A stretch of 32,466 bases of DNA from Cyanophora paradoxa CCMP329 (GCA_004431415.1 QPMI01000570.1:1-32466), one strand, 5' to 3'; shown: positions 1 to 28,675, counted from the stretch's first letter. Notes: generated from the sequence alone by a model not told the origin. Program-made: numbers and translations.

Positions 1-1758
1 ATGCAGGGCGATCCCCATCCCAGTATGCTGCAAGATCTACCAGCAACGTTGACAGCCATATTGGATTGTATATGCATCCCTCCTCGGCAATGAGACTCCC
101 ATCCTGTTGCCACTGCGCAATTTCATATCAGGACGGGCGACGATAGATATAAACAGGGAGAAGAGGACATCACATGGTAGCGGACACGGAGGTCGATATC
201 AGAAAGTGGTACGTAGTTGAGGGCGTTACGTGCAAGGATAGAAAGACTTGATAGGTCAAATGATTTAGGCACAATGCCAATCGACAAGGCATGGTCCCTC
301 AGGGCAGGACATAGTTGCACCTGCACCATTTCAATGGGCAAGGGATGATTATGTGATTAATATAAGGACATGGCACGGGTAGTGAGGCGCACCTCAGAGT
401 CGAGACCCATGTCGCGGCAGAAAGATGACCAGTTAATGCAGTAATCTCGAGGTATTGGGAGGATGTTGCAGGGACCGCAGCCGACTGTAATACGGTCACT
501 AACACATACACAGATGGATATATCATGTGCGTTGCCCCCCAGAACATCCGGAACAAATGAGCATAAACGGCATGTATGGGGCAGAAACGGAAGAGAGGGT
601 GCACCAGGCTTGGCAGACGAAGTACAAACTGCGTTAACGTGGTCTCTGTGTGGCTTATCAGTGCACTAATCTTTCGGCAGGGCGCATGTATAAACTGAGG
701 GGGTCAGGGAGAGGGCCGTAAGCACCGTCTCCGGAGGCGCACAGGTCTCAGCTTTGAACTCAAGTCCGGAGCAGGTAAGGGTGTGCCGGAGACCCCTATA
801 GAAGAAAGTACAAGACCGTCAAAGAGGCACTTGTACAGTGAGAGTTGGAGGCGCGTTTGCTCCTTCTGTAACTCCCGCGGTACAGTACGCAGTGCTCGCG
901 TTTTGTGATCGACGATGATTACACGTCCTCTTTCGCGGTCCTGCGTAGGGGGTGGGCGCCGGCAACGGAAAGCCAAAATAAGCGAACCAGCCGGATCTCG
1001 TCAATTATACCAATTAGGAGGAAACCACCACATAACCAAACACTGGCATTTCCCTCGTCTGCGATTGCATAGAATGAGTGTACGGACAACCTTGAAATGT
1101 CACCAGGGTCGAATGACTACGTACAATGCCCGCCGTGGCAAGCTCTTGCAGGCAAGCGATGAAGTTCAATAGTCGCACAGCATGTAGGTCTTCAGCAGTC
1201 TGCGTACGGTTGAAACCGTTAATGTAACATTGTAAGTATGGATACAGCAGAGTCGTGCTGAATGGTTTTCACACCTCAACGTCAATATCGACGAACGTGT
1301 GCAGCTCTGCCTCCAGGGTTTCGTGTCTTCGAGAGCCTTCCTTCATTGCCGCTGTTTGAATGGGTCGCTCTCCGGTGGTCAGAGCCAGTTCTACTGCCCT
1401 TTCACACCACAGCTGCGAAAAACACATAAAATCATCTACAGAGGTGATTACCACTTGCAAATAAAGACTGAATGCACAAGACCAGTGAGACGCCTAGCGC
1501 ACCTGAGAGCACAGCTGTGTGACAGAGAAGTAGACCTTCTTGAATCTCTTCCGGGGAGGATCGGTAGGAAAGAGTCCTCAATGTCGTTATTTGCGAATTC
1601 GTGGTAGTACTGCATGAACTTCCGAAAGCATGCGTGTTTATTACACGGCGATTCGCAGCGGCCGCAGTCAGTGCTGCTTCTATCTCCGCCATCTCTTCAT
1701 CTCCCACGATCTCCACTTCGATGTGAGACATTACACGGACACTGCATGCAGAAGACAT
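1..1758 (-). CDS. EXO5: Exonuclease V (EXO5/DEM1 family, Fe-S ssDNA 5' exonuclease), multi-exon, 3' end truncated by window edge
   Basis: Family motifs in order across exons: IEVEIVGDEEMAEIEAAL; SVDDFMCFSQLWCE...TAAMKEGSRRHETLEAELH; TAEDLHAVRLLN; REMPVFG..LIGIIDEIR; IIVDHKTR...QLSLYKCLFD; WQQDGSLIAEE...WLSTLLVDLAAYWDGDRPA at the left edge. Confidence 0.88.
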
Positions 1759-2041
1759 GATTACTGGATTTAGGGTGTGGGCAGGGACATAAGCAGGAGT
1801 TTGGCACGTGACCTAGAACTCATAGGCGGACGTGAGAAACTAGGTGGTCCCCAAGATAGCGCATCACGGATAAGACTAGTGGCACACAGGTGAAAGCAAC
1901 AACGTATAAGCGATAGCAGCGGCGGAGGCAGCGGATGATGAAAGATGGAGCAGAATCACGAAGACCAACCTGACGGAGATCAGGACGTCAGCGATTTGTG
2001 TCTATCTTGAGATCTAGAGCAGGGCTCAGCCTGAACGCTAA

Positions 2042-2790
2042 CCGCAGCGGTGAGGGCCAGAGGAACAGACGAAGAATTCCGGATGAGTTCTACGCAGCCG
2101 CCGGCAAGAACGGAGCGCGGTAACAGGTGAGCAGTCGGCCAAAGAAGCGGCCGGCGGGGGGCAGAGCGTGTTAAGAGGTAAGCAGTAAATGTAGGCTAAA
2201 GCAGCGGGCGGCGAGGATGGTACGTCTTAATCGGTGAGGGCTAGTCGAAAATAGAGGCCGGCGGAGGGGAGCGTGTTTAGCAGGCCAAAGCGAAGGCAAT
2301 CGGCGGCGGCGGAGCGGCCGGCAGGAGAGGAGCACGCTAAGCATTCCGAGACTGCGGCCGGCGAGGGCGGAGCGTGTTAACCGGTAGAGGCGACCTAAAC
2401 GTCGAAGCAGCAGCCGGCGAGGCCGGAGCTTGTTAACCGGTAAGAGCTAGCTATACGCCGAAGCAGCAGCCGGCGAGGTCGGAGCTTGATAACCGGCAAG
2501 GGCTAGCTGTACGCCGAATCAGCAGCCGGTGAGGACGGAGCGGGATAAGCGGCAAAGGCTAGGGCAAAACGGCCGGCTGGAACGGAGCGCCGGCTGGAAC
2601 GGAGGCCAGTGCAGCGGCTGGCTGGAACGGAGCGCGGCCGGCTAGAACGGAGTGCGGCCGGCGGAGCGAGCAAGTTTAGGCCAGTGCAGCGGCCGGCTGG
2701 AACGGAGCGCGGCCGGCGGAGCGCAGGCCAAATCAGTGGCCGGGGCCGGCGGCCGGAGTGGCTTAAGCAGGCCGAATCAAACAAGAGCAG
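2042..2790. repeat. Degenerate tandem repeat, ~56-bp unit
   Basis: Unit GAAGCAGCAGCCGGCGAGG.CGGAGC.TG.TAACCGG recurs at about 2404, 2460 and 2516, with more diverged copies on both sides. Confidence 0.8.
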
Positions 2791-3164
2791 GATGCGAGGT
2801 CACCTGCCTATGTCATCGGCGCACCTGCGAACTTGCGTCGAGCCGATCGAAAGGATGGTGGAGACTTGAAAGGGGTACAGGCTCATTGCTAAACGACCGT
2901 GGGCCACGGTCGTTCGGCAGACATGGGTACCGAATAATCAACGCGGCAGGCGGGCTAGCCTAGTAGTACGATTAAATGACAAAGAGTTAAACTGAGCGTT
3001 CAAGCACAGCATACCGCAATCACGGTCATGCACGAATGCGCGCGTTCAAGCATGGTATTCGCAAACTCCCGGAGCCAAACAAGAGCAGGCTGCGCGCGTT
3101 CATGATCAAGCATGGTAGTCGCAAGTTCCCGCGCCGGAGCTCCGACGTCGACGTGCCTGACACT

Positions 3165-3430
3165 AAGGGCGCTGGTCAGAGAGATGGAGACCTAAGGGAG
3201 GGGTGGGGTGCTTGAGGGTGGCGGCGACTGAGGGTGGCGGGGAGCTCGAGGGCGGCGAGGTGGAACAATGAGAATACGAGACGGGGTGAAAAAAAGGGAC
3301 TTTCGCAGCACAGCGAACAGTAGTAGGGGGGCATATAGAGAACGGACGGATAGACTACTGAGGGGGGGGGAGGGGGGGCGATCTTAAAATTACGGGCGGC
3401 TGGTCAGAGAAATGGAGACCTAAGGCAGAT
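3165..3430. repeat. Left part of ~215-230-bp tandem repeat array, interrupted by the LTR element
   Basis: Unit start GGTCAGAGA.ATGGAGACCTAAGG at about 3174 and 3402. The second unit resumes at 8378 (GGGGTGGTGCCCTAAAGGGTGGCGGCGACTGAGGG). Confidence 0.8.
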
Positions 3431-3867
3431 TGTTGAGCTAGAAATCCCCCATTCCGGTGCCCTAGGGGTGGCACGGGATTCTAGACAACAGGTTTATAGA
3501 GTGACTCTGACCTGCAGTGAGTGCAAGACCGGCCCCAGCGTGATGCAGGTTCAGCAGTATGACAGTACTCGTAGATTTGATCCGACAGAGTTTCACTACT
3601 CTAGTCTCTCTACTAGGCCGATCTCCGGGAATGACAAAATCCCCTAAACACGCACGCGCCGGGCTCCTAAAGCCCTCACGCTGTCCGTCCGAAGCTCTCA
3701 TGATCAGATCATATGATCCGATCAGACGGCTCAGACATATGAAAAGCGAGCCACTGGATTCGAACCCGAGTCTCTAAATACGCCGAAGCGAACTGCCGGA
3801 ATTGAACCCGGGTCTCTACGAACGGCAAATTCTAAGGCTGCAGCCGCCTAAGATTTCGCCCGCGACA
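3431..3867 (-). repeat. 3' LTR (437 bp)
   Basis: TGTTGAGCTAG...CCCGCGACA; direct repeat of 7941-8377. Confidence 0.95.
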
Positions 3868-4368
3868 TTCGTCGCAGCAGAGAAAAGCCGTCCTCGGCGC
3901 CTGCTACCCGTTCGTCGCAGCAAAATGCGAGGCCTAGCGTATGTAAACGTAAATCAGGTCCTGAAACCTCAGTACCACGAAGAGGTCAGGCCAGAAAATA
4001 TGGATACGAAATCCGACACTGAAGGCTGCAAAAGCAAAGCCCTCTGAGAACCTCGGAAATGCTGCGTGCGAAATTCAGAAGACGTATATAATGAAAAGTG
4101 GCCGAGGCGTTCTAACGCCCTGACGGCCCTAGCAGCACGAAGGCTGCACTAACTCTAGCAGCACGAAGGCTGCACTACCTATAGCCAAATCAGAGAAAAT
4201 CAGAAACCAGCAGAATATAACTATAGCTAAAGCTGCACATGTAGAGCTCAGAAAATATTTTCGAAGCTCACTGAGTCATGTACAAGCTAAACGCAACGAT
4301 ATGAAATCGCGATCACGATCAATATTCTAAAATAAGAATATCGAGATATCGATCGGAAATCGAACAGC

Positions 4369-4848
4369 TCAAGCTGCGTACTGCTGCTTGGCTGCGAGCT
4401 CGAGCTCGAATCGCTGCAGATGTTGCCTCACTCGCCGCGCGCTGCGGCTGATATGTACACGATTTTGTACAAATGCTTCGAGCTCCAGCTGCGGCTGCCA
4501 TGAAGAACGCCGACAGCTGCATACATACGCGTTGCAAATACGAGAAACGCAAGTATATATGATGAGAGGTCGCTGCAAGGTGCGGCCATGCTTGAACCAG
4601 CATCGCCAGCACGACTCTCTCGACGAGGGCAGTCTTGATTTGGGAATGACAGCGCCCTCGTGGACTTGCCGTGGACGTTGGCCTTGCAGACGCCGCTGCT
4701 CCTTCAACGTCGGCGAAGTCTGGCCCCTCCGGCCTGCGTCTGAATCTGTAGATGGCGAGAAAACGAGGAAGCCCTGTACATCCAAACGCGGGCGCCGCCG
4801 CGATGAGTACTTCCAAAATTTCCGCTCGTGATCTCTGAACCGCCTCAC
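4369..4848 (-). CDS. Possible second ORF of the LTR element, Cys-rich, unknown function
   Basis: 159-aa ORF on the same strand as gag, with CWRCWFKH...CVSRICNAYVCSC. No recognised domain and the start is uncertain. Confidence 0.25.
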   Translation of the reverse strand: MRRFRDHERKFWKYSSRRRPRLDVQGFLVFSPSTDSDAGRRGQTSPTLKEQRRLQGQRPRQVHEGAVIPKSRLPSSRESCWRCWFKHGRTLQRPLIIYTCVSRICNAYVCSCRRSSWQPQLELEAFVQNRVHISRSARRVRQHLQRFELELAAKQQYAA

Positions 4849-5863
4849 AAGATCCTCCGCCGTTCGACCCGAGAATTAAATTGCGGCCGGACGCACAGCT
4901 AAGGTGACGGTTGCTGTGTGCCCGCCGGCGGTAGGTGCGATTGCACGTCGAGTCCAAAGACCCAGAAGGTCCGCCGGGGATGCTCTATCCTCCGCCGGGT
5001 CAGAGGCACGAGGGAGACGGTGTCCAGTCTCCATAGCCAACAGATGGTTAAGGGCGTCCCCCGCTCCACCTGAGGCGAGACGGTGTCCAGTCTCAACCAA
5101 GTCCCCTCCTTGATTCCGAGAACGACAAAGGCCGGTTCCATCCGACTATGGGAGGTGCGCTTGCCTTGTCGTCCTGTTTCTTGTCAGTCAAGCCCGCTCC
5201 TCCGAGACGGACTGCATCTCGACGACGCCGCGTCGAGACACGCTTGACTTGAGTGTAGTAACCCGCGGCGACGATAACGCTGAGCTCGCGTCCGTCTGAT
5301 GCAGGGCCGATTCCGGTCTCGTCGGTTGGGTGTCAACCGGTCCAATGCTGTCCTGAGCGCCCTCCTGTCACGAGCAGGTCCGCGCCTCGAGCGAGACTTC
5401 GGGCATCCCACCCTCCACGGTTGTCCTCCCGCTCACGACTGTCCACAGCGCCCTCCTGGGTTCTTCCCATCCTGGCCAGGGCCTGGGCAGGTCCGCGCCT
5501 CGGTCGTGAACGCCGGTTCACCGGATCGGAGCGACGCCTTCTTCAAAATTTACGAATTCACGAATTCGAAGTCCGACCAGACCAATTGCAAGCTCCTGGT
5601 CATGATCATGATCGAGTCAAGGTCAATCCAGACCTTCAATGTCAGAAGAAAGGCCGTCGCTGTCGCAGGTGCGCGCAGTCCAGCACCGCGAAGCTGCCAC
5701 CGCTCCACCCACAACTTGAGAAGTGCAGCTGAAAATTACAAGTATACGCCACCACGTCGCAGGGACCACACCCCTCTTCGCGACGATATAAATCCTCATT
5801 CCTCCTCCGCTGGTCTTTTAATTCGCTTCACAGGCGGAGACCGAACCGCCATGGCGTATACTT

Positions 5864-7033
5864 TCACTTCGCGCCCGCCAGACTGCCGGAGCTCCGATAT
5901 TTCTCGAGCTCCTGCTGACAGGCTGAATATTGCATTTGCAGCTGGTTCAACTCCCGTTGAAGTCGCTTGCTGCAGACGGCAGTGTTGTGCGAGCCGCTCT
6001 TGCATTCATCGCACCAACGAGGTTGTCCACCGCCCTGACTTGAATTTAACTTCAGCTTCTTGCTGTCGGGCTCGTCGACGTCGTCCTCCTCGAGGCGATG
6101 ACGATCAGGGAAGGCGGAAAGTTGAGCAACAGGAGCTCTTGCCGCTGCAGTAGAAAATGGATTGCCAGTGCTTGCTTGCTGCAATCGAATCTCGAGCGCG
6201 TTGCGCGACCGAACTCGACCGAAGAATTCGCGACTCCACTCCGCCAGATTATTTCTGGAGCCCTCCGGAATTTTACTCGTGAGCTTGATCATTGACGGTG
6301 AAGTGATCGAATCCGACGACATGATTTCCGCGATCAACATCTCGTCGGAGAACGAATCTTGAAGCTGCAGTAGACGACGAAGAATATCAACATTATTTAT
6401 AAAGGCTTGCGCATCCAGCTCAGATGGATTTTCCAGCGCAGAGAAGCGACGTCCCGCCGTCTTGATAGTGTTCTTCAGAAGCTCGAATTTGTTGCCAGGC
6501 ACCAAGCCGAGCAGGTGCTCACGAATTTGTGCCCACGACGTCATGTCCAAGTCGCCGTTGCCCGACTTCGTAGTCATGACACCCAGCACAGCCGTCGAGA
6601 AGGATCCATGCACCGGGTCACTTGTCGAGCGCTGCAGCGAAGATAGTGCAAGCTCTGCCAACGTCTTGTCGGGTTCTGTGTATGTCGGAGGCCGGATACA
6701 AATTGTTAAACGTTCCAGCGACTCGACCCACGACAGTACACCCGTATTAGTCAAAGGAGGAATTTTCTCTTTGAATTCTCGCAGCTCGTGGTGACGTGCT
6801 TGCATGTCCAGGTTGCCAGTTAACGCGTCCAGTGCGTTCTTCAACGTGTTCTCGACTGCAGCAGCGGCTACCGCCGCCGGAGCCGCAACAGGCGCCGGAG
6901 CTGGTACCGGTGGTGCAACTGGAGCCGGAGGCGGAGCTGGCGCAGGTGCAGGAGCAGGCACTTGCGCTCCATGGCCAGCCGCCCCGTGGCCGCCGCGTTG
7001 GCCGCCGCCCCTGCCCCGTGTACTCGGAGCCAT
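5864..7033 (-). CDS. gag: Gag-like protein with CCHC zinc knuckle
   Basis: 389-aa uninterrupted ORF between the LTRs: Pro/Ala-rich N-terminus, capsid-like VLSWVESLE...TSWAQIREHLL region, and C-x2-C-x4-H-x4-C (CDECKSGSHNTAVC). Confidence 0.85.
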   Translation of the reverse strand: MAPSTRGRGGGQRGGHGAAGHGAQVPAPAPAPAPPPAPVAPPVPAPAPVAAPAAVAAAAVENTLKNALDALTGNLDMQARHHELREFKEKIPPLTNTGVLSWVESLERLTICIRPPTYTEPDKTLAELALSSLQRSTSDPVHGSFSTAVLGVMTTKSGNGDLDMTSWAQIREHLLGLVPGNKFELLKNTIKTAGRRFSALENPSELDAQAFINNVDILRRLLQLQDSFSDEMLIAEIMSSDSITSPSMIKLTSKIPEGSRNNLAEWSREFFGRVRSRNALEIRLQQASTGNPFSTAAARAPVAQLSAFPDRHRLEEDDVDEPDSKKLKLNSSQGGGQPRWCDECKSGSHNTAVCSKRLQRELNQLQMQYSACQQELEKYRSSGSLAGAK

Positions 7034-7925
7034 GGAGAACTTGAGCTAGACACGTCCGCCCGCCGCTCGATACCGCGCGTCGTAGTACTAGTGTAGGCCC
7101 GCGCGCCCCTCGACTCCGAATATTTTAATTTATTCCGACGTCGACTCGTGTGCCCGTTCAGTCGCAGACTAGAGTGCGAGCCTCCGAGGCTTGAGAGTTG
7201 CGAGTTCACTCGCACAAGAAGTGCGCTCAAGCCTCGCAACACGCCCAGCGCGCCGCGACTCCCGATCGCGCGCACGCCGATGCGCCGCCCGCGGCCGGCG
7301 CGCACGCGCTCGCAGGCTCGAGCTCCCGGCCGCAGGTCCGCCGGCGCGCAGCCGGGATGCCGGCGCGCGCCCTGGTTCCGGATCCGGCGCTCCGGCCCGC
7401 GGCGCTCCGGATCCGCGGATCCGGATCCGATGATCTCGCGCGAGGCCCTAGGTGCAGCGCTGCGCCCGGGGCCGCGCCGACGAGCCGCCGATCTACAGCG
7501 CGGTCTGCAGTGCAGACGCTGCGACGAGCGAGCGGCGATCAGCCCTGCGACGCGCGCGAGGCGCCTAGATCTAGAGCCCCGGAGCTAGCCCGGCTAGCCG
7601 CGACGTCGACGTCGTCGTTAGTGGCGCCCGGCGGCCGGCATGCGCGCGCACGCGCCGCGCGCGCTAGCGACCGTCGGACGCCGGGTCCGGAGCCCAGGAC
7701 GGATACGCATCTTTAAGAGCCTCGCGATGGCGCTGGCGGCCGGGCAGCGTCCGCTCATGATCACCCGCGATAGGTTGCGCCGAGCGGGAAGGGCCGGGGT
7801 TGAACGAATGCGCGAAACGGTTCTGGTCAGCGCACAGCGACTTCTGAAGGCACAGCGACTATGCGCATGAAATGAACGCGAGGCGAAGCTCGCTCGGCTA
7901 GCTCGCAGAGCCAGCGTTCGCGTTT

Positions 7926-7937
7926 GAGCAGCCCCCA
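7926..7937 (-). promoter_or_regulatory. Primer-binding site, tRNA-Pro-like
   Basis: Minus strand TGGGGGCTGCTC begins 3 nt after the 5' LTR. It is complementary to a CCA-ended tRNA and resembles the tRNA-Pro PBS TGGGGGCTCGTC. Confidence 0.65.
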
Positions 7938-7940
7938 AGA

Positions 7941-8377
7941 TGTTGAGCTAGAAATCCCCCATTCCGGTGCCCTAGGGGTGGCACGGGATTCTAGACAACA
8001 GGTTTATAGAGTGACTCTGACCTGCAGTGAGTGCAAGACCGGCCCCAGCGTGATGCAGGTTCAGCAGTATGACAGTACTCGTAGATTTGATCCGACAGAG
8101 TTTCACTACTCTAGTCTCTCTACTAGGCCGATCTCCGGGAATGACAAAATCCCCTAAACACGCACGCGCCGGGCTCCTAAAGCCCTCACGCTGTCCGTCC
8201 GAAGCTCTCATGATCAGATCATATGATCCGATCAGACGGCTCAGACATATGAAAAGCGAGCCACTGGATTCGAACCCGAGTCTCTAAATACGCCGAAGCG
8301 AACTGCCGGAATTGAACCCGGGTCTCTACGAACGGCAAATTCTAAGGCTGCAGCCGCCTAAGATTTCGCCCGCGACA
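7941..8377 (-). repeat. 5' LTR (437 bp)
   Basis: Direct repeat of 3431-3867. Confidence 0.95.
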
Positions 8378-9500
8378 AGATGCAGGGGTGGTGCCCTAAA
8401 GGGTGGCGGCGACTGAGGGCGGCGGAGAGCACGAGGCTGGCGGGGCGGAGCAACGAGGACCTGAGACGGGGTGACCAGGGGGACTTTCATACCACAGAGG
8501 GTGATGATATGACACAGGGCGGCGGGTCAGAGCGATGGAGACCTTTTTTTTGCAAGAGCCCAACCGGGCAATGTTCGTATTAAGGACAACAACAGCCGCC
8601 CCGTCGCTTGCATCGACTGGGGGGGGCGCCTAGGCTAGCTCTGAGGCTCTGCGGAATAGAGGGAAGACGTCCTGCTATCTTATCCTAGCTGTGAGCTATC
8701 GATCTGCGGCTTGAGGAGGGCCTGATGCGCTGGTGTCCTTGGTCCTGTGGAAAAGGAGGGAAGGGGGAAGGCGAGGCGCACGGGGTGCGGGAGGTCGGCA
8801 GGGGGCGAGGCGTAGGGAGGGGGAGAAGGGCAGGGAGTGGGGTACACGGAGCGCTGGAGGGTGGCGGGAGTGAGGCGTTCGAATCGGGAAGCTGAGGGGC
8901 GCGCGGGCGGGAAGGGTGACGGGCCGGGAGCGGGGCAAGGCGCTGGAGCCGGAGGGCGGGGGCGGGATGCTGGAGCAGGAGGGTGGGGGCAGGGCGCTGG
9001 ACCGGAGGGCGGGGGTGGGGCGTTGGAGACGGAGGGCGGGGGCGGGGCGCTGGAGCTGGAGGACAGGGGCTGGGCGCTGGAGGCGGGGGGCGGGGGCGGG
9101 GCGCTGGAGCTGGAGGAGCGATGGAGACCTATATAGCTAAGGGAGGGGTGGAGCGCTTGAGGGTGGCGTGCGGCGACTGAGGGTGGTGGGGAGCTCGAGG
9201 GCGGCAGGGCGGAGACAGGGTGACAGAGGGGACTTTCACAACACAACGAACAATAGCAGGGGAGCATATAGAGTACGGTTGGCTAGACTACCGAGGGGGT
9301 GGCGATCTTAAAATTACGGGTGGTGGGTCAGAGCGATGGAGACCTAAGGGAGGGGTGGTGCCCAAAAGGGTGGCGGCGACTGAGGGCAGCGGAGAGCACG
9401 ACAGCGGCGGGACGGAGCAAGCTAAGGGGAGCCTGAGACGGGGTGGGAAGGGGGACTCTCACAGCACAACGAACAGTAGCAGGGGAGCAAATAGAGTATG
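8378..9500. repeat. Right part of the ~215-230-bp repeat array plus G-rich low-complexity tract (about 8740-9120)
   Basis: GAGCGATGGAGACC unit starts at about 8530, 9116 and 9331. Shares GGCGATCTTAAAATTACGGG with 3377-3397. Internal GGCGCTGGAG repeats. Confidence 0.8.
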
Positions 9501-9509
9501 ATACGTAGA

Positions 9510-10225
9510 TTACAAGACACAGAGACACTGCTGCAGATGAGGGAGTGCAATGCGAACTAGTTCATGTACAGGTAGTCTAGCATCGAGCCGTACAATCGGA
9601 ATTCGACGCTGGTCTTCCAGCTCATTAAGCCACTCAGCATACAATTTTGACAAGCCTGGAATAGTCCGGATGGTCTCTTGTGAATCTCCCCGACTGCATG
9701 CACGACGCTGACAGAGCTCACTTGACGCATCCAGATATACTATCATAATCGGATCGGGAAACGCAAGACAAGCATACGTTTCTTGAAGCAAGTCGCGCTC
9801 GTGAAGGGTGAGATTGCCACGAGCGTGCCAGTAGGATGAGAAGATAGTATTTGAAGAATAATGACATCGCTCGACCAGGCCGATGATCGGAGGACTGCCA
9901 GTGCTAACGCTAGCGCTGTTGGCAATCGATAATTGGCGAAGGTGATCAGCATGAGACAGTAACGCTCGAAGCTGCATGCCAAGTACAGCGCCTGGTCTAG
10001 GGCCACCAGGCGCAAAAATACCGTCCAACCACGGCTGCCAAATATGCAGAGGCTCCGGGAATACACGAAACTGGGAGTGGCAGTTTGCTTCGACGGCTGC
10101 AGAAACTAGCTCTGCAATGAGCGTGCTTTTACCAGCTCCCGGCGGCGCTTCGAACGATACATATGACGCGCTGTTGCAGGCACCGGTCGGCGTACTGTGA
10201 GCGGGAAATCTACTAACGACTGCAT
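9510..10225 (-). CDS. Deoxynucleoside kinase (dNK/dCK/dGK family), apparently intronless
   Basis: One open frame from about 10230 to 9510 reads YVSFEAPPGAGKSTLI (P-loop), FPEPLHIWQPWL, LVERCHYSSNTIF (ERS motif), PDPIMIVYLDASSELCQRRACSRGDSQE (lid). The nearest ATG (10225) is one frame off. Confidence 0.88.
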
Positions 10226-10277
10226 GGACTTAGGGTGAGAAGCAGACGAAAAAAGTGAACAGGGGTACAGGCAAAAC

Positions 10278-10989
10278 ATGGACACGTGCACATAGAAGAT
10301 AGTCGCAAGCACAGCACTAGTACGCAAGCAGCGAACGCGCGTTGCAGTGCGGAACTGAATCTGAGCAGTACCGAAATAACGTCGCTGGCAAATTTCGCGG
10401 AGTGCAGCCGGTGTCACGCAGCGCACTCTGACAGGTCGGCACGTCCTATGTCTGCCGGTCGCACGCTTAGTCAGTTGCAGGTCATCGACTTCAAAGTCCG
10501 GTACCTGAATTCATAAAGGAGCAAGGGGTGCCACCCAACAAACCGGATGTGCGCTTCCCTTACCAGCTACTTCGCGCCACTGCCTCAGCGGTTGGCTGCA
10601 GCTGCTCATTATAACACGATGATTCACGAGGGAACGAGGTCCAGCTGTTCATGACCATGTCGCCAACTACTACGTATTGGGAGCAGCTACTCGGCCTGCA
10701 TGCAAACGGAATCGCGGAGAAATTGCCAGATACGGATACGGCTATAACCACATTCGACGGGAGTGGTGTCGCGACCTCTTTCCAGCAAGATCAGTACCAA
10801 CTGATCACTGCAGCTGTACCAGTCGCAGCACACGAGGACAGTGAGGATGATATGCCAGCACTGGAAATCGGCATGCCACACTTTTACATAGGGATCAACG
10901 CCATTTCCGCCGCGACCGATCCTCCAGCAGTATACTCTCATGAGCATTCGTTGATCTGGCTAGTAGGGGCGGTGCGGCGTGAAGAATAA
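10278..10989 (+). CDS. Hypothetical protein divergent from dNK
   Basis: ATG at 10278; ORF pieces 10286-10516 and 10651-10989; AATAAA overlaps the stop. No recognised domain. Confidence 0.3.
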
Positions 10990-11047
10990 AAATTCGATCG
11001 ATTAAATGGACATATCGCTAAACGAGGGCATCATAGTCATATCTATT

Positions 11048-11680
11048 CTACGGTATCAATGCAGAGTAATGGTGGTTCTGTATAGAAAGTAGAGAACCGT
11101 CGCAGTGAAAGATCCCGTGGTAGAGTAGACACAAGGGACGGTGATAACGGATGAGAGGAGGGACGTGAAAAGTTCCATCAATCCCTGTGTGTATATACGG
11201 GAAACGTCGGGAGGCACTCCTATCTTCAAAAAAAATCATGATAGGTCTACACAAGTAGGCCGAACAGAAGGCGACTTCCAGATTTGTAGCTGCACGGGCG
11301 TTATAATGACATGAGTAGTTTCTGGTTAGTAGGCAGCACACACCGTCTGTACCGGGCTCTCGCATGCGGTTGCAGTATGCGGTAATGATATTCGCACCTT
11401 GATTGAGACCTTGCGCGCCGTTTGGAGCGACTGGGGCGTCGGGAATTGCAGCGGAGTATAATAGGGGTAGAAAGGATGGAGAGGACTAGTTGACATCATC
11501 AGGTCAACAACACCTGCCCGTAGTGTATCCGCAAAGAAACATTTCTCTGATTTCCGCTGTAAGACAGGAAGGTCCCTTCAGCAGATAACCCGTCGATGAT
11601 GGATAGGAACATGCAGCGCCTGCACCAGAATTGCTGCGAATTTCGACGTATTGGAATGGAGCTCTAGATATAAATGAAAG
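11048..11680 (-). CDS. OTU-like cysteine protease/deubiquitinase domain, downstream of and possibly fused to RepHel
   Basis: SGAG(R)CMFLSIIDGL (Cys at about 11613-11615, needs a 1-nt frame correction), LRAGVVDLM, YCNRMREPGTDG/ATNLEVAFCSAYLCRPIMIF, LCLLYH, NHHYSAL. This is the OTU motif order. Confidence 0.72.
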
Positions 11681-12420
11681 GTCTAGATAATTACTGACCT
11701 GACAGAACAAGGTAAGGGGACACTACGTTTGGAGGCAGCGTCCCTTGCGTTACCATGGCAGATATGCGCTCTGCCATAATATGAACCACAGAAGATTGGA
11801 TATGAGTTGAGGAAGGTGCAGCAGGGACAACAACAGTGTTGTAGAGTGGAAGACAGCATGAACGGGAGGTGCGGACCACTAGAAGCTGCATGTGCAAAAA
11901 CCGAGTCCAGACGGCGAGGAAGGAGATCATGCGACAAGAAGGGGACGGTGCAGGGTGTAGATGGCGAAAGTAATGGACCCAGGGGACGGACAGGGGCACT
12001 AGAGGAAGAAACCGGATGAGAAGTGTGGATAACTGACGTAATCGCAGTTCCAGCTACGTTGGCCCGTTTCGGACAGGATGAGGTGACCGAATCGTTTAAT
12101 TTGCGTTTCGGTGTCACAGGGGTTGGTTGTGAACTTGAAGCAGGGGCGTTTGTAGAACCCTGTTTCTTCGGGTACCAACTTGTTTTGATGATCCGGAATT
12201 TGCAGCTTTGAGGCGATAGTATTCCATGACTGACGGCGGCTTGGCAACTGGCATAATTGAAGTTCCCCACAATGCGCGGCGATCTGACGTTGGTAGGCCG
12301 ATTGAAGACGACAGAGTCCGAAGGCGTTCCTGTTCCCGAATATCGCAAGGGTTCGGAGCAAAGTAAAGCCATCGATCGCAAGTTGTGTTCGAATCTATGA
12401 TGGCATCGACATCCGATACA

Positions 12421-15400
12421 TCAGACTCGCCGCTGCTCGAACATATGGTCGCCAATGGTACAGGTACCGCTTGGATTGGCGTCCAGGTTTCGTGACTTGG
12501 GGTCGCGTAGGACATGGGTGAATATGATATCCGCTGAAGATCGAACGCGACTACAGGCTACATACGCCATGTTATACGAGAATGCACGTGCAAGGTCAAC
12601 CACGATCTTGGGCAAGGTCAGGCCTTGGCATTTATGGATAGTAACAGCCCATGCTAGTCGAAATGGGAACTGTGTACGCGATGGCGTAGGGCTTGTGGTC
12701 TTGGCCTCACTCGTCAGGGCGGGCTGGTTTCATGTTCCGGCTGGTCTGAATTTGGCGTTTCCTTTGCATGTACAACAGGCTCATTCGAAAGATCGCGTTC
12801 GGAAGGCTCGATTCGTACAGCCTGGTAGTCGACACCTGCAAGCGAAACTTGGACGCGTCCTCGTTTGCGACCGACCTTGTCATCGTCGAATGCGATGTAC
12901 AGTGCGACGGGTGCATTCTTGTCCAAGATTCGGACCGTTGAGGACGACAGTGGAACTGGACCATCGAACTCCCAACCAACCAAGGTTCCGAGGGCTCCAT
13001 TAACCAGCCGTCGTGTGTATCTTCATTGATGATCATCATTACACGTGAGCCGAGACAAAAAGTGAACTTGGCTGCCAACAGATCACTCTGTTTATTCTGC
13101 AAACTCCAGACTGAGACAAGAAAAAAGATATATAGATCGAACATGGAACAAGCCACGCACGTCAACAGGATCAGCTGGCTTACATGTTTTCGCTTCTTGT
13201 CGTATTCACCCTCATCGAAAGCCTCCAACGTGATGATCGGTGCTAGGTACGATGTGATGTTGCGAACAGGCGAGTCTGATTGTAGGAAGCAACTTCCCTG
13301 TTACAAGGGAACACACGCAATGCATTCTGCCAAGCAGGAGAAGACAGCTCAAGCTCCAACTGCGCATACCCTCGGCGATTTTCCTGAGGGTCAACGGACC
13401 TAAAGGCCCACGGTATTTCAGCACGCTTCAAACTCCTACTTGAATGACGCAGACAATATGTAGTCACACCTGGACAGCACGAGACGTTTATCATTATCGT
13501 GGAATTCACCGACACGCAGTCGCAGACAGGTGTCACGCCACATCGTATCACCAGCTTGCCGGACCACTTCGTCGAGAAAAATGGGATGAAATAATGAAAG
13601 CCATAGATGGATATCGTCGATACGGTCGGCATCTTGCTTGAACGTACGCCACATAAGAGGCGACAAAGGACTGTAAATCCGCTTCTCCCGGACAGGAGGT
13701 AGCTGAAAGAAATCCCCGAAACAGATTACGGATTTTCCAGCAAAGGAGCATCGATCTGAAAGATCTCCTGCAGACGCTGATTGACACGCGGGAAATTCTT
13801 GCCACCTATGAAGCTGATCTCGTCGATGATGATAAGTTCGACGTCCCGGAACTTTGCATTCAATTGGCAGGCTCGTTGTCCAGACAGAGGGTAAAACGTG
13901 TCCTTTGCGCCGTCTTTAGGAGGGCACCGAATGCCAGAAGAGTAGAGACGGTGCTACCTCCAATGTTAAACGATGCAACACCAGTCCAGGACATGAGCAG
14001 AACCCCTCCGTTGCCACACGGTTGGGCCATGTTGGCATGATCCCGGCTCCATTGCATCATATATTTTACAATCGTCTTGATTAGGAAAGACTTCCTGTAC
14101 CGCCTGGTCCGACACACGCCACATGTAAGGTAGTTTGGGAGAGATGGCAGGGAGTTCCACTTGTCGGCAAGCTGGCATCCCGGCATTCGCAGCTAGCTTT
14201 GCATTGTAACTATGCAACCGGAACCAATCAGGTCATTATAATAAAAATAACGAAAGCCAGCACACTCGGATTGAGAGGTGTAGTGTTTTCGAGCCGACTA
14301 GTCATTTGACGGACGGCAACCATCAGCTCCCGTTGTCGGGGCTTCAATTTCGTTTCCATGTCTGGCAGGCTCATTGAATCAAGATCATGCAAATCGACAC
14401 TTGAATTCGACGTAGCCGGGACGGGTGGCTGAATCGAACTAGGTGGCTCAGAGTTGGCCGCCTCTGGTTCCGAAGGGATAGCAGCCGGTGCAATGTTTGG
14501 TCCACCACCTTGCGCTCCCGCAGGAGGAACGGAGTCATGAGGGAGCATTTCGGCATCGACCCCCTGGACTCCTTCGGGTGCACGGGGTCGCACATGGGAC
14601 GTGGATGATGCTGTGCCAGTGGTCGAGCGATTATCATGGTGCAAATCTCTCCCAGCAGCCAATCGCGCATCCCTGTCGAATTTTTGGAGAGATCGTTCGA
14701 GACGTGCAGCCATATGACAGTGAGTAAACTGTATGTTGTACTCTATAGTTGCACGGTGACGGATGACGGCGGCGGATATAACTTCTGGAGTAACGTCATC
14801 CTCAGACTCGACCCCCAGCAGATCGCGCAGTTCGTTCCGGAAAGGACATGCATAAAAAGAAGACTGTACAAGCTGTCCGGATCGCCATCCTTCGGAACCC
14901 GAACCCGAATTGCGCGCGGTCGACGACGCTGTTGCAGCACGTGCCGATGGAAAGGTTTGCCCATCGAGGTCCGTGGACACACGCTGGTAACGGAAATTTA
15001 TGATTACCAGTTGTGTGAAATGCAAGGATCCGATTAAAAACAAATATACCCGGAGGCAGCAATTTTGGGTCGAAGTGGTGCTGTTGTCTGCGGATGTTGT
15101 TTCCGGATAGCCTCATTCGACCATGCCGGATTCGGCTCCCAATCATTCAAATTAGTGCCATTGTCCATTCCATCGCAATCCACATCCTCGCTTGTGAGAT
15201 TCGAATCAGGGCCGGCGCCCTTTGGGGCATCACCAAGGAAATGTATGTTGAACCAATTCATGTACTGCATGAATGTCAACGATTCGAATATAGGTGGCGC
15301 ATCTAATACATCCATCAGTTCGAACGGTCGTAAAAAAACCACCCGAAGCATGCACGTACCAGCAGGGTCTTTGGTGCGAGCCATATAATAATCGATCTGA

Positions 15401-18400
15401 TCGTCGGCCCATGCATCTTGATCTTCAGGATTCTTCTGCATCCTGAATTCAAGATCTTTTTTACGACGCAGATGTTTGGTGCGCTTCGACGGAAGATAAG
15501 CCCCACTGAGCATGATGTCCTTGATGAATAAAATAAAGGGAGACCTGCCAACAGAAAATGCATATTCAGGTAAATCAAAGTGGAATGATACAATTCAATT
15601 AATTCGAAGCCAAGGAAGTATAGGGTACAGACCCAGGCAATATAATCCTGCTTCCTGTTTCGACATTGTCCGACACCCGAGCATAGCATTACGCATCTAT
15701 ATGAGGGGTCCCGACAGTCAGCGTCATGTGTAGCAAGGAATCCAGGCACGCGATGCAGCATGCCTTCAGAAGGATCTGATTAGTCGACGCCTCATCCGGC
15801 AAGTCGCTCAATACGGCCTCCACAGCTTTCATCTCCTCCGTCTCATCCTTAGTCATATAGCCGAGAATATACGCGGCTATCTTGTAAGGGTTCGTCACTA
15901 CTTGAATATCCATATTGGCCTGCCAGAGCTGGATGATGACGTCGTGAAAGTTATTCGTGTAACGATCGTCCTGCGTTGTTCGCCGGAAGATCACCTCCTT
16001 GTCACCACGGCACATAAATCGCTCTTCATGCGAACTCCGCAGATGAGTCTTAGAAGCAAACACCTGGGGAAATCCGAAGCGACATTTACAGCGCTCCTTG
16101 TATTCCGCCATGAACTTCGCAATGCGGGCAGAACGGGCGACGTGCTCAGAAGGTGCTGCTTTTTCCATAGCGGCCAACTGGTCGTCGAGGACGCTATTGC
16201 GGGCCGAATCCGGAAGGGGTCATGTAGTTCCGCACTGTCATCTACCGTAGGCAATTTCCGATGACGTCGAAACTTAAAGGAAGCAGCAGGATCGATCCTG
16301 CAAGTATGAGAGTGTTTATGTCGATTGAAACGGGCAACGTAATTCTGTAAACGAGGTGTTGCCCATGGTTGAGCGAAAGGCCCTTCCGTTCGAGGTTGCT
16401 GAAGTTGAATCGTCGGTTCGCGTACACATGAACGGGGCAGAGTAAAAAATGAGGAAATCGAATGACTCACCTCGGTTTTGACGACTGTATCAAGCCACTC
16501 ACAAACTTGCTCGGCATTGAACGTGGGATCCGAAGGGTCCAAGTTCGGTGGCGGTGTTGTCACACCATCTCGGATGCGCTCACCCAACCAGATTACCAAA
16601 TGAGCATGCAGCGATCCACGACTCTGTACCTCATACCTTCGATTACATTATTGGCGAGAATTAAGTACGGTATGAACCTAACCGCGAACCGGACAAAGAA
16701 ATCAACCACCGGCCAACCAAATAAGACCTCCCCGCCTCCGATTGGAAGAGATCAAGCATGGCACGGACACGCTCGTCGAAATGTTCAGCCACGATTCCAG
16801 GGTTATCGTTCAGCAATTTAACAACCTCGTCACGATTCGCAGTGAACGCCGTTACATCTGCACTGGACCGGAAACGAATAGGATCGATTGCACGCAATAA
16901 GTCCGGCCAATGAAGGTCGTCGCTGGAGAGAGTCATGTAGATATGAGGAAATCCAATCGTAGTGAACATGCTGTGTAATTTATTTCTCGCGTTGATCCAA
17001 TACGCGGCTGTACCGCGCACCTAATTGAACACCACTTTGGTCAGCACAGCAGAGGCAGTAATATATACAAGGGCAAAGACGTGAACGTGCGTTACGTGTC
17101 ATTGTACGGTAGCACCGCGTACGAATGGCCAAAGCGTCGAGGGAATGGTCTTCCACAGTACTGTTTATTAAATTTAATGCGTCGGCAACAGTCAAGGGGG
17201 CATTGGAAGCGACATTGTGGGTGTCACGATTATCGGTTGACATAGCATTGACTATATGATCCCGCACAAAATTGAATCCACGCCATGCATCATCATCCAA
17301 TATAATTGACACGGAATTCAGAAGAGCAGCAGGATCTCGCTGGAAGGGAGCAGATGATGCTGCAAGGCATCGGTGTGAAAAAAATTCACGGGCCGTGAGT
17401 TCGATTGGCCTGGCGGATCATGCAGGCCGTGCGTGCCTGAAGTAACTAACTTAATCTCGGGCGGCACGGTTTCAAATAGCAAATAGCTTACCTGTAGGAT
17501 AAACTGACAAGAAGGAGCAGACGTCTGTTTCGGGCGCATGCGCACGGATAATACGGCCGGCGTTTACAGGGAGAGTGCTAAGCGAAGTTCCTTTCAGATT
17601 CACGGCGACAGAAGGGCAGATCGGACGGTTCAGAGGCGAGGAGTCAGAGACTCCGTCATCCGAATCATCACTATCCGAATCATCGGCCTCGCGTGGGTTA
17701 ACGACATTGTCAGTAGTTCCAGCATTCCATTTCTCAATTTCGGCCAGTAGCTCGGGATCGGTTGGATCACGCAATAGAATATTCTGATAATACAGGTGCT
17801 TGGTGGTATTCCGCAGGCATTCGAGAACTTCGAAGCAGCGATCCAGCCTAACGCGGTTGTACCAAGTCTCTCCACCTTTCGGCTTTCGTTGATTCACCAA
17901 GCAAACCTTCCCTCTTGGTGGAAGTGGGAAAATTGCTTTGATATTGTTGATGGGGTTGCAGGTACAAAAATCACTCGTCCTTGAGAACCTAGTTGCCCTC
18001 CACCCATCCTGCGACCATTCTGCCCTTTTGGTCCTCGAACATGAATTAACTGAGATAGCATACGAAATTACATGACGGTAAATGAGAGTGACAAATAGAT
18101 ATCACCTGATAGTTATTAACCCGCTGACACATCAGCAATTCCGGGTACGTTAAATCAGACAAAAGACGTCGCGTACTTTCATCGACCTCCACACAGTGCA
18201 GACGATTCTGGACAAAATCTGCTTTAGCCGGGTGTGTCGATAAGTATCCAATAACACATACCAAGCGCGAGAAGGGGCAGAAAGGTCGTTCCGGAGTGCA
18301 TTGAAAAGCATGGCACCGGGTACAAAATTCGACACTTGCCTGATCAACGGGTATTCCATGCAGACGCAATACTGAACACGGTTGACAGCACACATCTGTA

Positions 18401-18954
18401 AGTACACACTGACAACTCGATTCATGATGTCGTAGCGGTGAAGCATTCCCAGAAGACACACATTGGCAGCGAATGACATGCAATTTATCTGACCGCCTTG
18501 ACTCTGTGCAGCAGCTACACAGTCGCCGGATGCAGTATAGCTTGAGAAAAAATAACCTGGCAGCATCCTTTAATGCTTGGTTTGAAATCTCGTTCCAGAA
18601 CTGAATCGGTTCATAGCTGATGCAAGCATATGCATGAGAAGTAGACGTGCGTACACGGAAACGCAAACTTACTCGGACAATAAGGTGGCGAAATCCGTGT
18701 GAAGTTCCAAGAGACGTTCAGTCTTGTTGCGCCTGCTACGACTTGCACTCTTCGCGTGTTCCGAGGGTCTGAGAGGATTCGACGCATGGCGAGCTGCAGG
18801 AAAAATAAAACAGAGATAAACGGACATGAAAAGAAAATTCAAATGTCACCCCGCACGTACCCGAATCATAATCACGCAAGAATTGCCTGTCAGAGTCAGG
18901 GAGCGCATTTCTCAGGCGACCACGGTACGAATTCTCTGAAAAAGCGCCCGTCAT
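12421..18954 (-). CDS. Helitron Rep/Helicase transposase (HUH-Y2 endonuclease plus PIF1-family SF1B helicase), intron-rich
   Basis: N-terminal LSDLTYPELLMCQRV and VRLDRCFEVLECL (HLE2/DUF6570-like). Rep: RGTAAYW...GFPHIYMTLSSDDLHWPDL, HUH motif YEVQSRGSLHAHLVIW (about 16585-16636), RHKHSHTC, CRFGFP, ANMDIQ...AAYILGYMTKDE. Helicase: GPGGTG/KS, WTGVASFNIGGSTV, IIIDEISF, FGDFFQLPPV, LDEVVRQAGD, LAWAVTIHKCQGLTL, AYVACSRV. Start ATG 18954 is tentative. Confidence 0.95.
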
Positions 18955-19037
18955 GCCAGTTCACTAAGGGTTGCAAGTTCTAATAAACACTCACTTGTTT
19001 GTCTGCTAGGCTGGGTCGATCGGTGAGCTATAGACCG

Positions 19038-21200
19038 ATGGGCCTCCCAACAAGGACGATCAGCGAGTACGGTGCCACACAGACCACATGGAAATTTGTC
19101 GTCCAGTGTAATATCGTGGGCACCAGCCAAGTGGTATCGCCATTCATTCTCGGTCCGAAATGCAGCCCTGCATGAGGCGGCACCGACACAACGGTACGCA
19201 AACTATAAAAAAGATGCACGCAAATTAGCGAGAGGCAAACGGTCCGAAACAAAAATACCACTTGCATGTTGAGCTGGGGTTGCATGCACGAATCGATGGA
19301 GAAGAGGCGGAGTTGATAAAGAAGACTGCGACAGATGGCACGGTCTAGGTGCAATTTTAGGAAAACGTTGCACCTAACATGGCAGCGACGTTACACCGGA
19401 ATATAATACCCATATTATTCAGCACGCACAATTTCGAGAAAACGTGAGGGCGTGAATGATGAAGAACCCGGTAGAGGGTTATAGGCAAATTGCACATCGG
19501 GCGGTGCAGCCCCGCCATGAATATATTGACTCGTTCAACCTGCGTCGACAAATGTAAGAACATTCCACGTCTCCACGCAACAGCACATATTCGGCAGCAG
19601 CGCGCAGAGGGCCTCCGAGATCTTGACACGATACGCACGGGCCAAATTCGAGGACGCGCCCCCGGCGCGAGAAGCCCTTGCGTCTAAAGCCTGCAACGCG
19701 TACGCTCTCGGCGCCCTGCCTCGGCAGGAAGGGACGTACAGCGGCGCACGCGACGGGAGCACCAGGGCGACGTGCGGCCGTCAAGGACACACCGCCGGCC
19801 GAAAGTCCACGATGGTCCACGTGTACCAGGGTAGCTGAGCACGCTAGACGCCAACTGGGGATGCAGTTCCTAAAGAAGATGCTAGGCGGCAAGACTAACC
19901 GTACTAATTCAACGACCACCCACAGGGGTATCGCATAAAAAACACAGTAGTTGGAAGCAGCACCAGCTATATTAAGATGTCTAGCGGGAAGACGATCGCC
20001 ATATCCAAGGACCTTGTCGCAAACGCGACGCAATACGCACAGAGAGCACACGATAGCGTATTACGGGATGTTAGACAGGATGCCGTTGCCAATCTCGGAG
20101 ACTTCCCCTCGGAATGCAGGGCCGACCTCGTAGAGCTGGAATACACAGCATTGCAGTTAACCGGCAAGCGGCTGATCACGAATCGACAGTTCAATCGACT
20201 CGTATGGGCGGCGGAGGTGTACGCGCAGTTCGCCGAAGTTGACCGGTGTCTGCAAGCAGAAGCTATGGAGATTAAGCGTGACAACGAGCCTAGTCAGTTC
20301 TGCGGCGTATTAAGCGTCTCCCCTTTTCAGCCGGGACACGATGGCGAGTGCTAGCTTTGAAACGGAAGTGGAATTGGAAACTGAAGGCGACTGACGAGAA
20401 ACACGTGGAAGCAGCGGCAGCTCAAGATCGGGACATCGAAGATCTGGAAATATACGCAACAGTATCAGAGGCAATCGCTGCAGTGGAGACTAGGATCGCA
20501 GATATTGAACGCGGAGGGCAACGAGCAGCGGGGACTGTAATAAGGCTGGTGGGTTGGTAAGCATGAATTATCTGTACATGAACACAATAACGTATGCGTG
20601 GATTTGAACTGAAACATGCAATCGGATGCAGTGAGGAGTGTTTGGAGGTCCGGAGAAAGAAGAAGAGCGCGTGGGGAAAATGCAGCAAGCATGCAATTAC
20701 ACGGGACCAAACCTCCAAGATTGACAGTACAAATTGTAGGCAGTAACTACCAGTTGTTCAGCAGGAATTAATATACATCATTCTAAGATGATATCCAACT
20801 CTAACTGGTGAACTTGCAAGGCAGATTCCAGAGCCTGGCAGATGCAAGGCAGTGGCATGGCAGCAGACGAACATGAGAGATGCCACAGTGCAGGTTCCGC
20901 AAGCCAGAAGCAGGTATATATACGGAAGGAACGAAGGGCGGGGGCCAACTGGATGCATATGCGGGTTGGATAGAGGCAGGGAGAATTAGGGAAGCTGAAG
21001 GAAAATGCGATGTAAGATGTAAGAAACGCGTGTGTAAGAAACACTCATCGACAAAATTGGGCGAACCTGGAGCGATCAGTCGTCAAGTACTATTTCGTCG
21101 ACGACCTCGAAAGGGTGGTAGCCGGCTCGTGACCGAGACATCTCTTCGACGAGGACGGTAATACGAAGCGCGAGCCGGGCGGATCGATCGAGGATGGCAG
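19038..21200 (+). CDS. Unknown multi-exon gene divergent from RepHel
   Basis: ATG at 19038; protein-like ORF pieces 19977-20354 and 20348-20560. A GTAAG...CAG intron (about 20557-20631) joins to GCEECLEVRRKKKSAWGKCSKH (C-x2-C...C-x2-H). Gene limits are uncertain. Confidence 0.4.
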
Positions 21201-21208
21201 CGAGAGTC

Positions 21209-23529: not shown

Positions 23530-24831
23530 AGCCGAATTTCGGACAACCGTCTAGCTGCATGCGCCATGCTAGCTGGATGCACGTGCGCACCCAATCGGCA
23601 AATCCGGAGGTGATGCAGCTGCTCCTGCAGATGGGGCATCTGTGGCTCACCTAAACGCAGCTGCAGATCCATGGGGGACAGAATAAAGGGGCGGACCGGG
23701 CAAGCTGTTCGTAGTGCGATTCGCAGGTCGACCACGCTTTGAGGGAGGCCTGCGAGCGAGATTGTGCAGCGTGTCGAGACGGACTGAGCGGTAGGGCGCA
23801 TGGCGGGGCGCGCAGCGTGCAGCGCACCCTACGGGGACGCGAACATCGGCGATGGATTTGCTTCAACGTCCGTCGACTCCGTAGACTTCGGTTTGCAATG
23901 GCGGGCCTGCGGCAACGAGAGTAGACAAAGTACATGAGTGCGTGCGGAACAAGACGAACAGGCCCGATTCAGGCGCGCGGGCACCGAGTCTTCACCATGA
24001 CCGCGCGTCCGATGGCTACAGGTGAGAACGGCCGGGCGACGGCAGATTTTTGTAATATGCCGATCAGCCGCAGAGGAGGCCTGATTAGCACGGGGGGGTA
24101 TCATTAAGGCGGCAAAACTGGCAATAGAAACCGGCTGCGATCCGGCGGCGAAACAGCCGTAGGGAGAGCAGACCCACCTGTTAAATTGGACGGGTACGTG
24201 CGGCCAGGTAGACATGAGCCGCCGATGATCTGCAGATTCGTGCACAGTCGCTGACCTGGCTGTAAGCGCGACGGCGAAGCGCGAGCTCGGCGCCTGCAAT
24301 AAAACTACATGGAAGGATGCGGTGCTACATCTGGTGACCCCCAGGGTGCGGGCTGTCACACGCACGACCGGCGAAAGCGCGCGCCGCTGTCAGAGGAAAA
24401 TTAATTCGGTGCACAAACAGAGTACACGATTGACACGGAAGATCACAAGTTCCCTTCGGAAGTCCCAGTGATGCGGGAGAGCACTTCGCGCGCAGCGCCG
24501 ACTTCCGAACTTGGCACAACGGACAATACGGTGACTGTGTACGTTCATATATGGCTTCCGAATAACAAACATTCACTTATAATAATGCTCAGGATCGAAG
24601 AAGCACGAGAAAGCATCGATAATTCAAATCCATCGCCAAGCCACGTGACGACCTCGGACGACAATTCTGGTGGGTATATACCCTATAAATCAGAAGTCAT
24701 GTGGATATGGTGCACTAAACCAAATTGTCATGTCAGCCCCGCCCCGAATTCTGCAGCGGCGGCTACTTATATAATAAAATATATTTGACATGACAGAAAG
24801 CACCGCAGCCCCCTAATCAACAGTCCTATAG

Positions 24832-28269: not shown

Positions 28270-28642
28270 CTGACCCAGACGCGGACGGTGTGGTCGTCCG
28301 AAGCCGACGCGAACATGTGCGGGTTCTTGGGGTTCCAGCTCACCTGAGCAGGCGTCGGCCGCGCATGGGACGGGCCGGGGAGGGCGACGCACGGCGTTGA
28401 CGGTGCCGGAGTGGCCCGGGAGGGCTTCGAGCAGGGCCCCGTTCTGCCGGTGCCATATGTACACCTGCGAGTCTGGCGGGAGGCGTCGGCGGGGTGCGCG
28501 GGGGCGCCGGGGCGGTGCCGCCGCGCCGCGCCGCGCCGCGCACCCTCGCTCCCCGAGATGACGAAGGCCTGGCCCGTGCCCCGAAGCAGCTCCGGATGAC
28601 GTAGCGCCCCTCTGCCCGCACGCCGCCGCGCCCCGTCGTGAG

Positions 28643-28675
<33 letters not shown>

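Follow-up and report, generated by a model that had tools for sequence, protein, structure and literature searches.

The window analysed here, a 32,466-nucleotide stretch of the Cyanophora paradoxa CCMP329 genome (GCA_004431415.1 QPMI01000570.1:1-32466), carries on the minus strand of positions 1-1758 a gene of the EXO5 family of exonucleases. This gene is intact, transcribed and spliced, and its first eight exons fall within the window. A gene for a Helitron Rep-helicase (RepHel) lies 10.7 kb upstream of it. We read the EXO5 gene as a cellular duplicate residing in a GC-poor domain of ~27 kb, rather than as a working part of that Helitron, and give this reading a probability of roughly 0.6. 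On present evidence the gene is an ordinary duplicate whose surroundings are unusual in composition; with it, an unannotated, apparently functional second EXO5 is added to the genome of a key algal model.

An earlier note on this DNA, made from the sequence alone, had called a spliced EXO5 at 1-1758, and this call is borne out by Pfam matches, by collinearity with a full-length family member and by RNA joints. A Pfam scan of the 86 stop-to-stop open reading frames (ORFs) of the window matched Exo5 (PF09810) on the ORFs at 1272-1493 (40.8 bits) and 707-1000 (27.7 bits), both above the gathering cut-off of 25 bits. The full-length EXO5 protein of 517 aa that we refer to as P0001 is collinear with the window from position 1731, where a methionine is the counterpart of its own start, down to base 2. 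The gene runs off the start of the window, and with the missing bases restored it reads through 364 codons without a break as far as the window edge. Its introns measure 47-90 nt, except for intron 5, and all of them are of the GT..AG type (Table 1).

Positions 1-2715 of the window were compared with contigs from two DNA runs (X1 and X13) and two presumed RNA runs (X15 and X16). No run is on record as RNA; we conclude that X16 holds RNA because its contigs are spliced. These contigs confirmed four of the seven EXO5 introns, two through joints (112|174 and 1199|1275) whose skipped stretches have GT..AG borders on the minus strand, and two through loose ends (at 322 and 1125) that resume in the next exons. 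One RNA contig extends 193 nt past the window edge. Positions 365-728 and 1457-1758 fall outside the RNA contig cover and are uninformative on expression.

The same comparison accounted for the broken frame. Ten single bases are absent from window positions 1-2715 (behind 360, 376, 434, 1029, 1573, 1602, 1768, 1836, 1848 and 1964); they are the same in both DNA runs and are accompanied by just one substitution, which gives a density of 3.7 per kb. The ten frame problems of the EXO5 region are one-base deletion errors of the assembly. Exon 1, for instance, forms a single open frame only with two bases added, behind 1573 and 1602; an extra small intron at this place, assumed from the change of frame, was ruled out by the DNA contigs, which show the two missing bases. 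Errors of this type go on further into the window, with 16 gaps in 9098-13724 and 15 in 13909-20000 against 0-1 substitutions in the DNA contigs. Across positions 1-20000 these systematic one-base deletions break the frames of EXO5 exon 1, of a deoxynucleoside kinase-like (dNK) ORF and of RepHel. The gene would have been missed since such deletions break its frame: assembly frameshifts would explain why the proteome holds no EXO5 gene model from the window, and no database protein of at least 173 aa was found identical to a window EXO5 exon.

The window protein is well conserved where the family is. In an alignment of 20 EXO5 proteins it keeps 12/12 invariant and 16/16 nearly invariant columns, including C89 (LWCE), D177 (the Asp of IIDEI), K194 (VDHKTR) and Q213..Y217 (QLSLY, the QxxxY motif). 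It thereby resembles EXO5/Exonuclease V (PF09810; human EXO5, 7lw7; yeast Exo5/Dem1) in its Pfam match, its PD-(D/E)XK core with QxxxY, its N-terminal iron-sulphur (Fe-S) cluster cysteine and its overall collinearity with a full-length member. Three more cluster cysteines are expected at the C-terminus, and of the codon matching the first of them only the opening base falls within the window. All three are present in P0001, to which the closest solved structure is human Exonuclease V (7lw7, E = 1.5e-31). What sets the window gene apart within the family is that it is a second, GC-poor copy in one genome, read as far as this first C-terminal cysteine codon. From its family membership the protein would be predicted to act like EXO5 elsewhere, as a PD-(D/E)XK, Fe-S-cluster, single-strand-specific 5' exonuclease, and it could be a sub-functionalised paralogue serving, for example, organelle or nuclear DNA maintenance.

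P0001 was found among longer proteins with the ORF 707-1000 as query (one match of 451 candidates, 69% identical) and corresponds to EukProt EP00741 Cyanophora paradoxa tig00000828_g4629.t1, with a Pfam Exo5 score of 183.8 bits. A WDR26-like gene at the right end of the window encodes another protein of that set, P0006 (tig00021178_g19189.t1 of EP00741, by exact look-up). P0006 was found through a window WD40 ORF to which it is 100% identical over one exon; it is collinear with 31240-28420, and 300 of 524 residues fall in ungapped matches of at least 90% identity. As P0006 and P0001 belong to the same proteome and lie on different contigs, P0001 represents a second EXO5 locus of the genome. 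Of the 355 residues aligned between the two EXO5 proteins, 235 are identical (66%); the alignment includes the N-terminal tail, and identity is 70.6% over the N-terminal 228 residues and 61% over the C-terminal 116. When 1.84 billion representatives were scanned with P0001, 849 relatives were returned at E <= 0.001, and the best 150 were all at most 49% identical to it. We built a tree of 56 rows, consisting of the window copy, P0001 and 54 of the 55 best matches (one 739-aa protein was removed by a length filter of 250-700 aa). In this tree the window copy and P0001 are sisters on a long stem, with a Shimodaira-Hasegawa-like approximate likelihood ratio test (SH-aLRT) value of 100, and their end branches measure 0.30 and 0.12, respectively. 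The alignment and the tree identify the window EXO5 as a lineage-specific paralogue and, judging from its branch, the faster-evolving, derived copy.

The two copies also differ in make-up. Gly, Ala, Arg and Pro together account for 42% of P0001 versus 26% of the window copy, and Phe, Tyr, Met, Ile, Asn and Lys for 9% versus 19%. P0001 carries at residues ~240-361 an Ala/Gly/Pro-rich low-complexity insert with a repeated GRRPAPEVIE motif, which is absent from the window copy. Since this insert starts at the position of window intron 5, the gene model may have read through an intron here.

The GC content of the window EXO5 is 51.6% in the coding sequence, 51.6% at third codon positions (GC3) and 49.3% in the introns. 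GC3 is 47% for the dNK ORF and 42-64% for the RepHel ORFs; among the comparators at the right end of the window it is 81% for an F-box ORF and 74-86% for the WD40 ORFs. The C. paradoxa genome, whose contigs are named tig... and carry Augustus gene models, averages 67.6% GC according to PMC6704402. Low GC is not confined to genes and extends to the DNA upstream of RepHel: intergenic GC is 51% in 10230-12423, 52% in 18718-21000 and 54% in 24400-27300, all lower than the genome average and than the 72% measured for 27500-32466 as a whole. The change is sharp: at ~27.3-27.5 kb GC rises from 55-60% to 72-77%, and the GC-poor flank of this step is not depleted in CpG. These data document a GC-poor domain of ~27 kb (~50% GC in a 67.6% genome), in which a young long terminal repeat (LTR) insertion, a kinase gene and the near-intact Helitron gene, present as a single copy, are found. 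The silent sites and introns of the window EXO5 would have drifted to a local equilibrium of ~50% GC, since this repeat-rich domain is probably beyond the reach of whatever force maintains high GC in the other genes of the genome.

Several expectations of the earlier note hold in this light. The moderate GC of the EXO5 introns does differ from that of the WDR26-like gene (74.5% between exon matches), and the separate cellular EXO5 of GC-rich type that it suggested searching for exists, as P0001, on another contig. Its description of the gene as element-like in composition holds as an observation: EXO5 is indeed similar in GC to RepHel and dNK, but so is the whole ~27-kb domain, including the DNA upstream of RepHel.

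RepHel itself appears near-intact and is possibly intact. Its motifs include HUH (HAHLVIW), the tyrosine motif (YILGY), Walker B (IIIDEISF) and a PIF1-type helicase motif (FGDFFQLPPV). The Walker A motif reads VGPGGTG and then KSFLIK, split by a one-base frame step near 14092 of the type caused by assembly errors. From 18717 to 12427 the gene can be read without a stop by using 24 one-base steps in the direction of the assembly errors (one such indel was individually listed, at 13921). For comparison, ~18 steps would be expected from the density of assembly errors, the opposite strand requires 64, and 20 shuffles required 71-108. The nearest database proteins are 30-39% identical (4 matches of 258 candidates). 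A possible RepHel splice junction, the only one seen, lies near 17020: the match of one RNA contig breaks off at 17019, and 106 letters of the contig follow. The RepHel introns with which the earlier note compared those of EXO5 have this single candidate junction behind them, as most RepHel frame breaks match the assembly deletions in direction and density. In both DNA runs the contigs are unbranched over 1-2715, 9098-13724 and 13909-20000, with depths over EXO5, dNK and RepHel of 368, 330 and 377 in X1 and of 157, 165 and 173 in X13. As the three genes lie on long unbranched contigs of like depth, no near-identical extra copy of them was seen.

We also looked for signs that EXO5 and the Helitron belong together. 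No perfect hairpin (stem of at least 7) followed by CTRRT was found as a Helitron 3' end; 1-12500 contains 176 CTRR sites, and the most stable upstream folds are in the GC-rich interior of the LTR element. With a single-copy element there is no alignment from which its ends could be defined. A metagenome scan with a Rep-domain alignment gave 129 relatives, of which 80 loci (517 kb) were kept, and EXO5 or dNK was matched (E <= 1e-3) in 0/80, a weak negative given that only 18 of them reach at least 5.5 kb downstream and 8 at least 9 kb. A scan of ten EXO5 relatives of more than 600 aa detected no Helitron domain in any of them. The literature search found no paper naming both Helitron and EXO5, and no paper titled on Helitrons in Cyanophora. 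The earlier note had suggested that EXO5 could trim displaced strands or flaps during rolling-circle transposition, and had asked for the linkage of EXO5 copies to RepHel to be checked. The check did not reveal such linkage, and what speaks for membership is that EXO5 lies on the strand of RepHel, downstream of it, and is alike in composition. The opposite picture drawn there, a sole EXO5 in the genome with an element terminus between it and RepHel, was not found either: a second EXO5 exists, and no terminus was detected.

Independence from the Helitron is favoured by the domain-wide low GC, by the seven host-style introns and by an EXO5 duplication that appears much older than a near-intact RepHel could be if it were not under selection. 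With RepHel near-intact and EXO5 diverged by 34% in protein from its paralogue, the data fit a RepHel younger than the EXO5 duplication. Several observations weigh against the reading as a cellular duplicate. The 10.7 kb between the EXO5 start (1758) and the RepHel stop (12424) shrink to just ~5.7 kb without the LTR-type insertion. As the ends of the Helitron were not found, EXO5 cannot be placed outside the element. EXO5 and dNK lie downstream of RepHel on the same strand, which is the position of host DNA in 3' end-bypass capture; a duplication at the DNA level that keeps introns is a product of Helitron capture; and the GC3 of EXO5 (52%) is like that of RepHel and dNK. RNA contig depth over EXO5 is low (2.8-5.3) and some contigs keep introns, so that a normal cellular role can only be presumed, and the C-terminal Fe-S cysteines fall beyond the window. 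Finally, CpG observed/expected ratios are 0.88-1.09 in the GC-poor parts, and this lack of depletion led us to reject the decay of methylated CpG as the cause of low GC, so that one simple regional mechanism is lost.

The alternative that survives best, although we consider it unlikely, is that EXO5 is a passenger: the Helitron would have missed its 3' terminator and taken along downstream host DNA (dNK and EXO5, introns included), and the window EXO5 would be a transduplicated copy that plays no part in transposition. Besides strand, position, composition and retained introns, this would be consistent with the presence of a second, slower-evolving EXO5 elsewhere in the genome. Helitron end-bypass capture is described, for example for the Helibat elements of bats, in PMC4224331, and the likeness to those cases is a host-derived, intron-bearing gene downstream of RepHel on the same strand. 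Unlike those cases, the window shows no element ends, further copies or recent capture, its gene is no fragment but complete and well conserved, and the GC-poor make-up reaches past any plausible element. No terminus was found either before or beyond EXO5, no other copy was seen, and the retention of 28/28 conserved positions is unlike typical captured fragments. Moreover, 66% protein identity and silent sites at the local ~50% GC suggest an old EXO5 duplication; a RepHel of that age that was not under selection should have decayed, yet this one is near-intact.

We find it improbable that the window EXO5 is a silenced duplicate on the path to a pseudogene, its repeat-rich domain being methylated and heterochromatin-like. 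The low depth and partial splicing of its RNA contigs would agree with this, as would a branch 2.5x longer than that of its paralogue and the transposons in the domain. CpG methylation affects 21% of C. paradoxa genes, most of them silent, as well as repeats (PMC12344493); the GC-poor domain may be such a methylated region. On the other side, the frame is open over all 364 codons, the 28 conserved positions are kept, the splice sites are canonical and in use, and CpG is not depleted.

Least credible is an accessory role, in which selection in the Helitron lineage would have preserved EXO5, and perhaps the dNK-like kinase, for handling single-stranded intermediates or flaps in rolling-circle transposition. 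EXO5 is intact, conserved and transcribed, RepHel is near-intact, and both share strand and composition, but neither EXO5 nor dNK accompanied the 80 related Rep loci (8 of which reach at least 9 kb downstream), the long EXO5 relatives and the literature showed no such association, and EXO5 has seven host-type introns versus a RepHel that is readable without any. Known accessory genes of autonomous Helitrons and Helentrons, which encode RPA-like proteins, OTU proteases and AP (apurinic/apyrimidinic) endonucleases, are similar to EXO5 in encoding a DNA-processing protein beside RepHel, but they recur across many copies and species. Furthermore, the accepted model has Rep covalently attached to the 5' end of the strand that is transposed, which leaves a 5' exonuclease without an obvious substrate. 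A glaucophyte Helitron lineage that keeps a complete intron-bearing EXO5 and a dNK-like kinase as its own replication accessories, with the GC-poor make-up reflecting a long life inside the element, is accordingly a very long shot; if true, it would be the first rolling-circle transposon with an Fe-S 5' exonuclease and a new kind of accessory nuclease.

Table 1. Features of the window (positions counted from its first nucleotide; "." denotes no strand)
Feature	Position	Strand	Remarks
EXO5 exon 1	1503..1758	-	ATG at 1758; aligns with P0001 residues 1-77
EXO5 intron 1	1413-1502	-	90 nt, GT..AG; outside spliced RNA contig cover
EXO5 exon 2	1275..1412	-	LWCE: N-terminal Fe-S cysteine and start of nuclease core; Pfam Exo5 40.8 bits
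EXO5 intron 2	1200-1274	-	75 nt skipped in X16 RNA, CT..AC on plus strand; confirmed
EXO5 exon 3	1125..1199	-	RNA joint 1199|1275
EXO5 intron 3	1059-1124	-	Confirmed by RNA loose end at 1125
EXO5 exon 4	988..1058	-	GIIDEIRL, catalytic Asp; window one base short behind 1029
EXO5 intron 4	941-987	-	47 nt; frame requires removal; retained in the sole RNA contig covering it
EXO5 exon 5	743..940	-	VDHKTR and QLSLY motifs; Pfam Exo5 27.7 bits
EXO5 intron 5		-	258 or 114 nt, depending on exon 6 border; outside RNA contig cover
EXO5 exon 6	393..484	-	5' border 484 or 628; window one base short behind 434
EXO5 intron 6	321-392	-	Confirmed by RNA loose end at 322
EXO5 exon 7	174..320	-	RNA loose end at 322
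EXO5 intron 7	113-173	-	Confirmed by RNA joint 112|174
EXO5 exon 8	1..112	-	Open at window edge; RNA joint 112|174
GC-poor domain	1..27300	.	~47-60% GC apart from inserted repeats
LTR-type insertion	3431..8377	.	4,947 bp; repeats 3431-3867 and 7941-8377
dNK-like P-loop kinase ORF	9513..10229	-	Deoxynucleoside kinase family; Pfam dNK 48 bits, cut-off 27
Helitron Rep-helicase (RepHel)	12424..18717	-	Helitron_like_N 48.6 bits; weaker PIF1 and UvrD_C_2
WDR26-like WD40 gene	28420..31240	-	Host-type comparator; encodes P0006
F-box gene	31.4-32.2 kb	+	From Pfam scan

Between RepHel and EXO5, the LTR-type insertion is young: its 437-bp terminal repeats are 100% identical, it has TG..CA ends, and it is flanked by a 4-bp target duplication (AGAT). 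No Pfam domain (reverse transcriptase, integrase) was found in its ORFs. DNA contigs of both X1 and X13 contain the joint of the empty site (3426|8378) as well, so that the insertion may be polymorphic or its flank duplicated elsewhere.

The dNK ORF has no in-frame methionine before its P-loop, probably through another missing base, and is covered by low-depth RNA contigs. The only neighbours that the protein atlas gave it are clusters of distant P-loop kinases from bacteria, archaea and (large DNA) viruses. A viral origin of the block was considered and rejected: neither the dNK ORF nor P0001 had relatives in viral contigs, and no viral hallmark domain occurred among 148 ORFs, which comprise the 86 mentioned above and 62 smaller minus-strand ORFs submitted to a second Pfam scan.

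Several repeats were noted in this part of the window. Upstream of EXO5, a 56-bp tandem repeat (3.7 copies) occupies 2357-2562. Repeat units of ~115-255 bp are present at 3174-3430, 8384-8497, 9116-9275 and 9326-9498, and a 27-bp G-rich minisatellite (6.9 copies) at 8932-9116 is found at very high depth in the DNA contigs. Upstream of RepHel, a 415-codon ORF on the minus strand (22306-23550) has an intermediate GC3 of 67% and an F-box-like motif (LPDLVMAEIMRHL), with no Pfam match at E 0.01. The scan of the 62 smaller ORFs added a single feature, a weak C2H2 finger match at 18954-19202.

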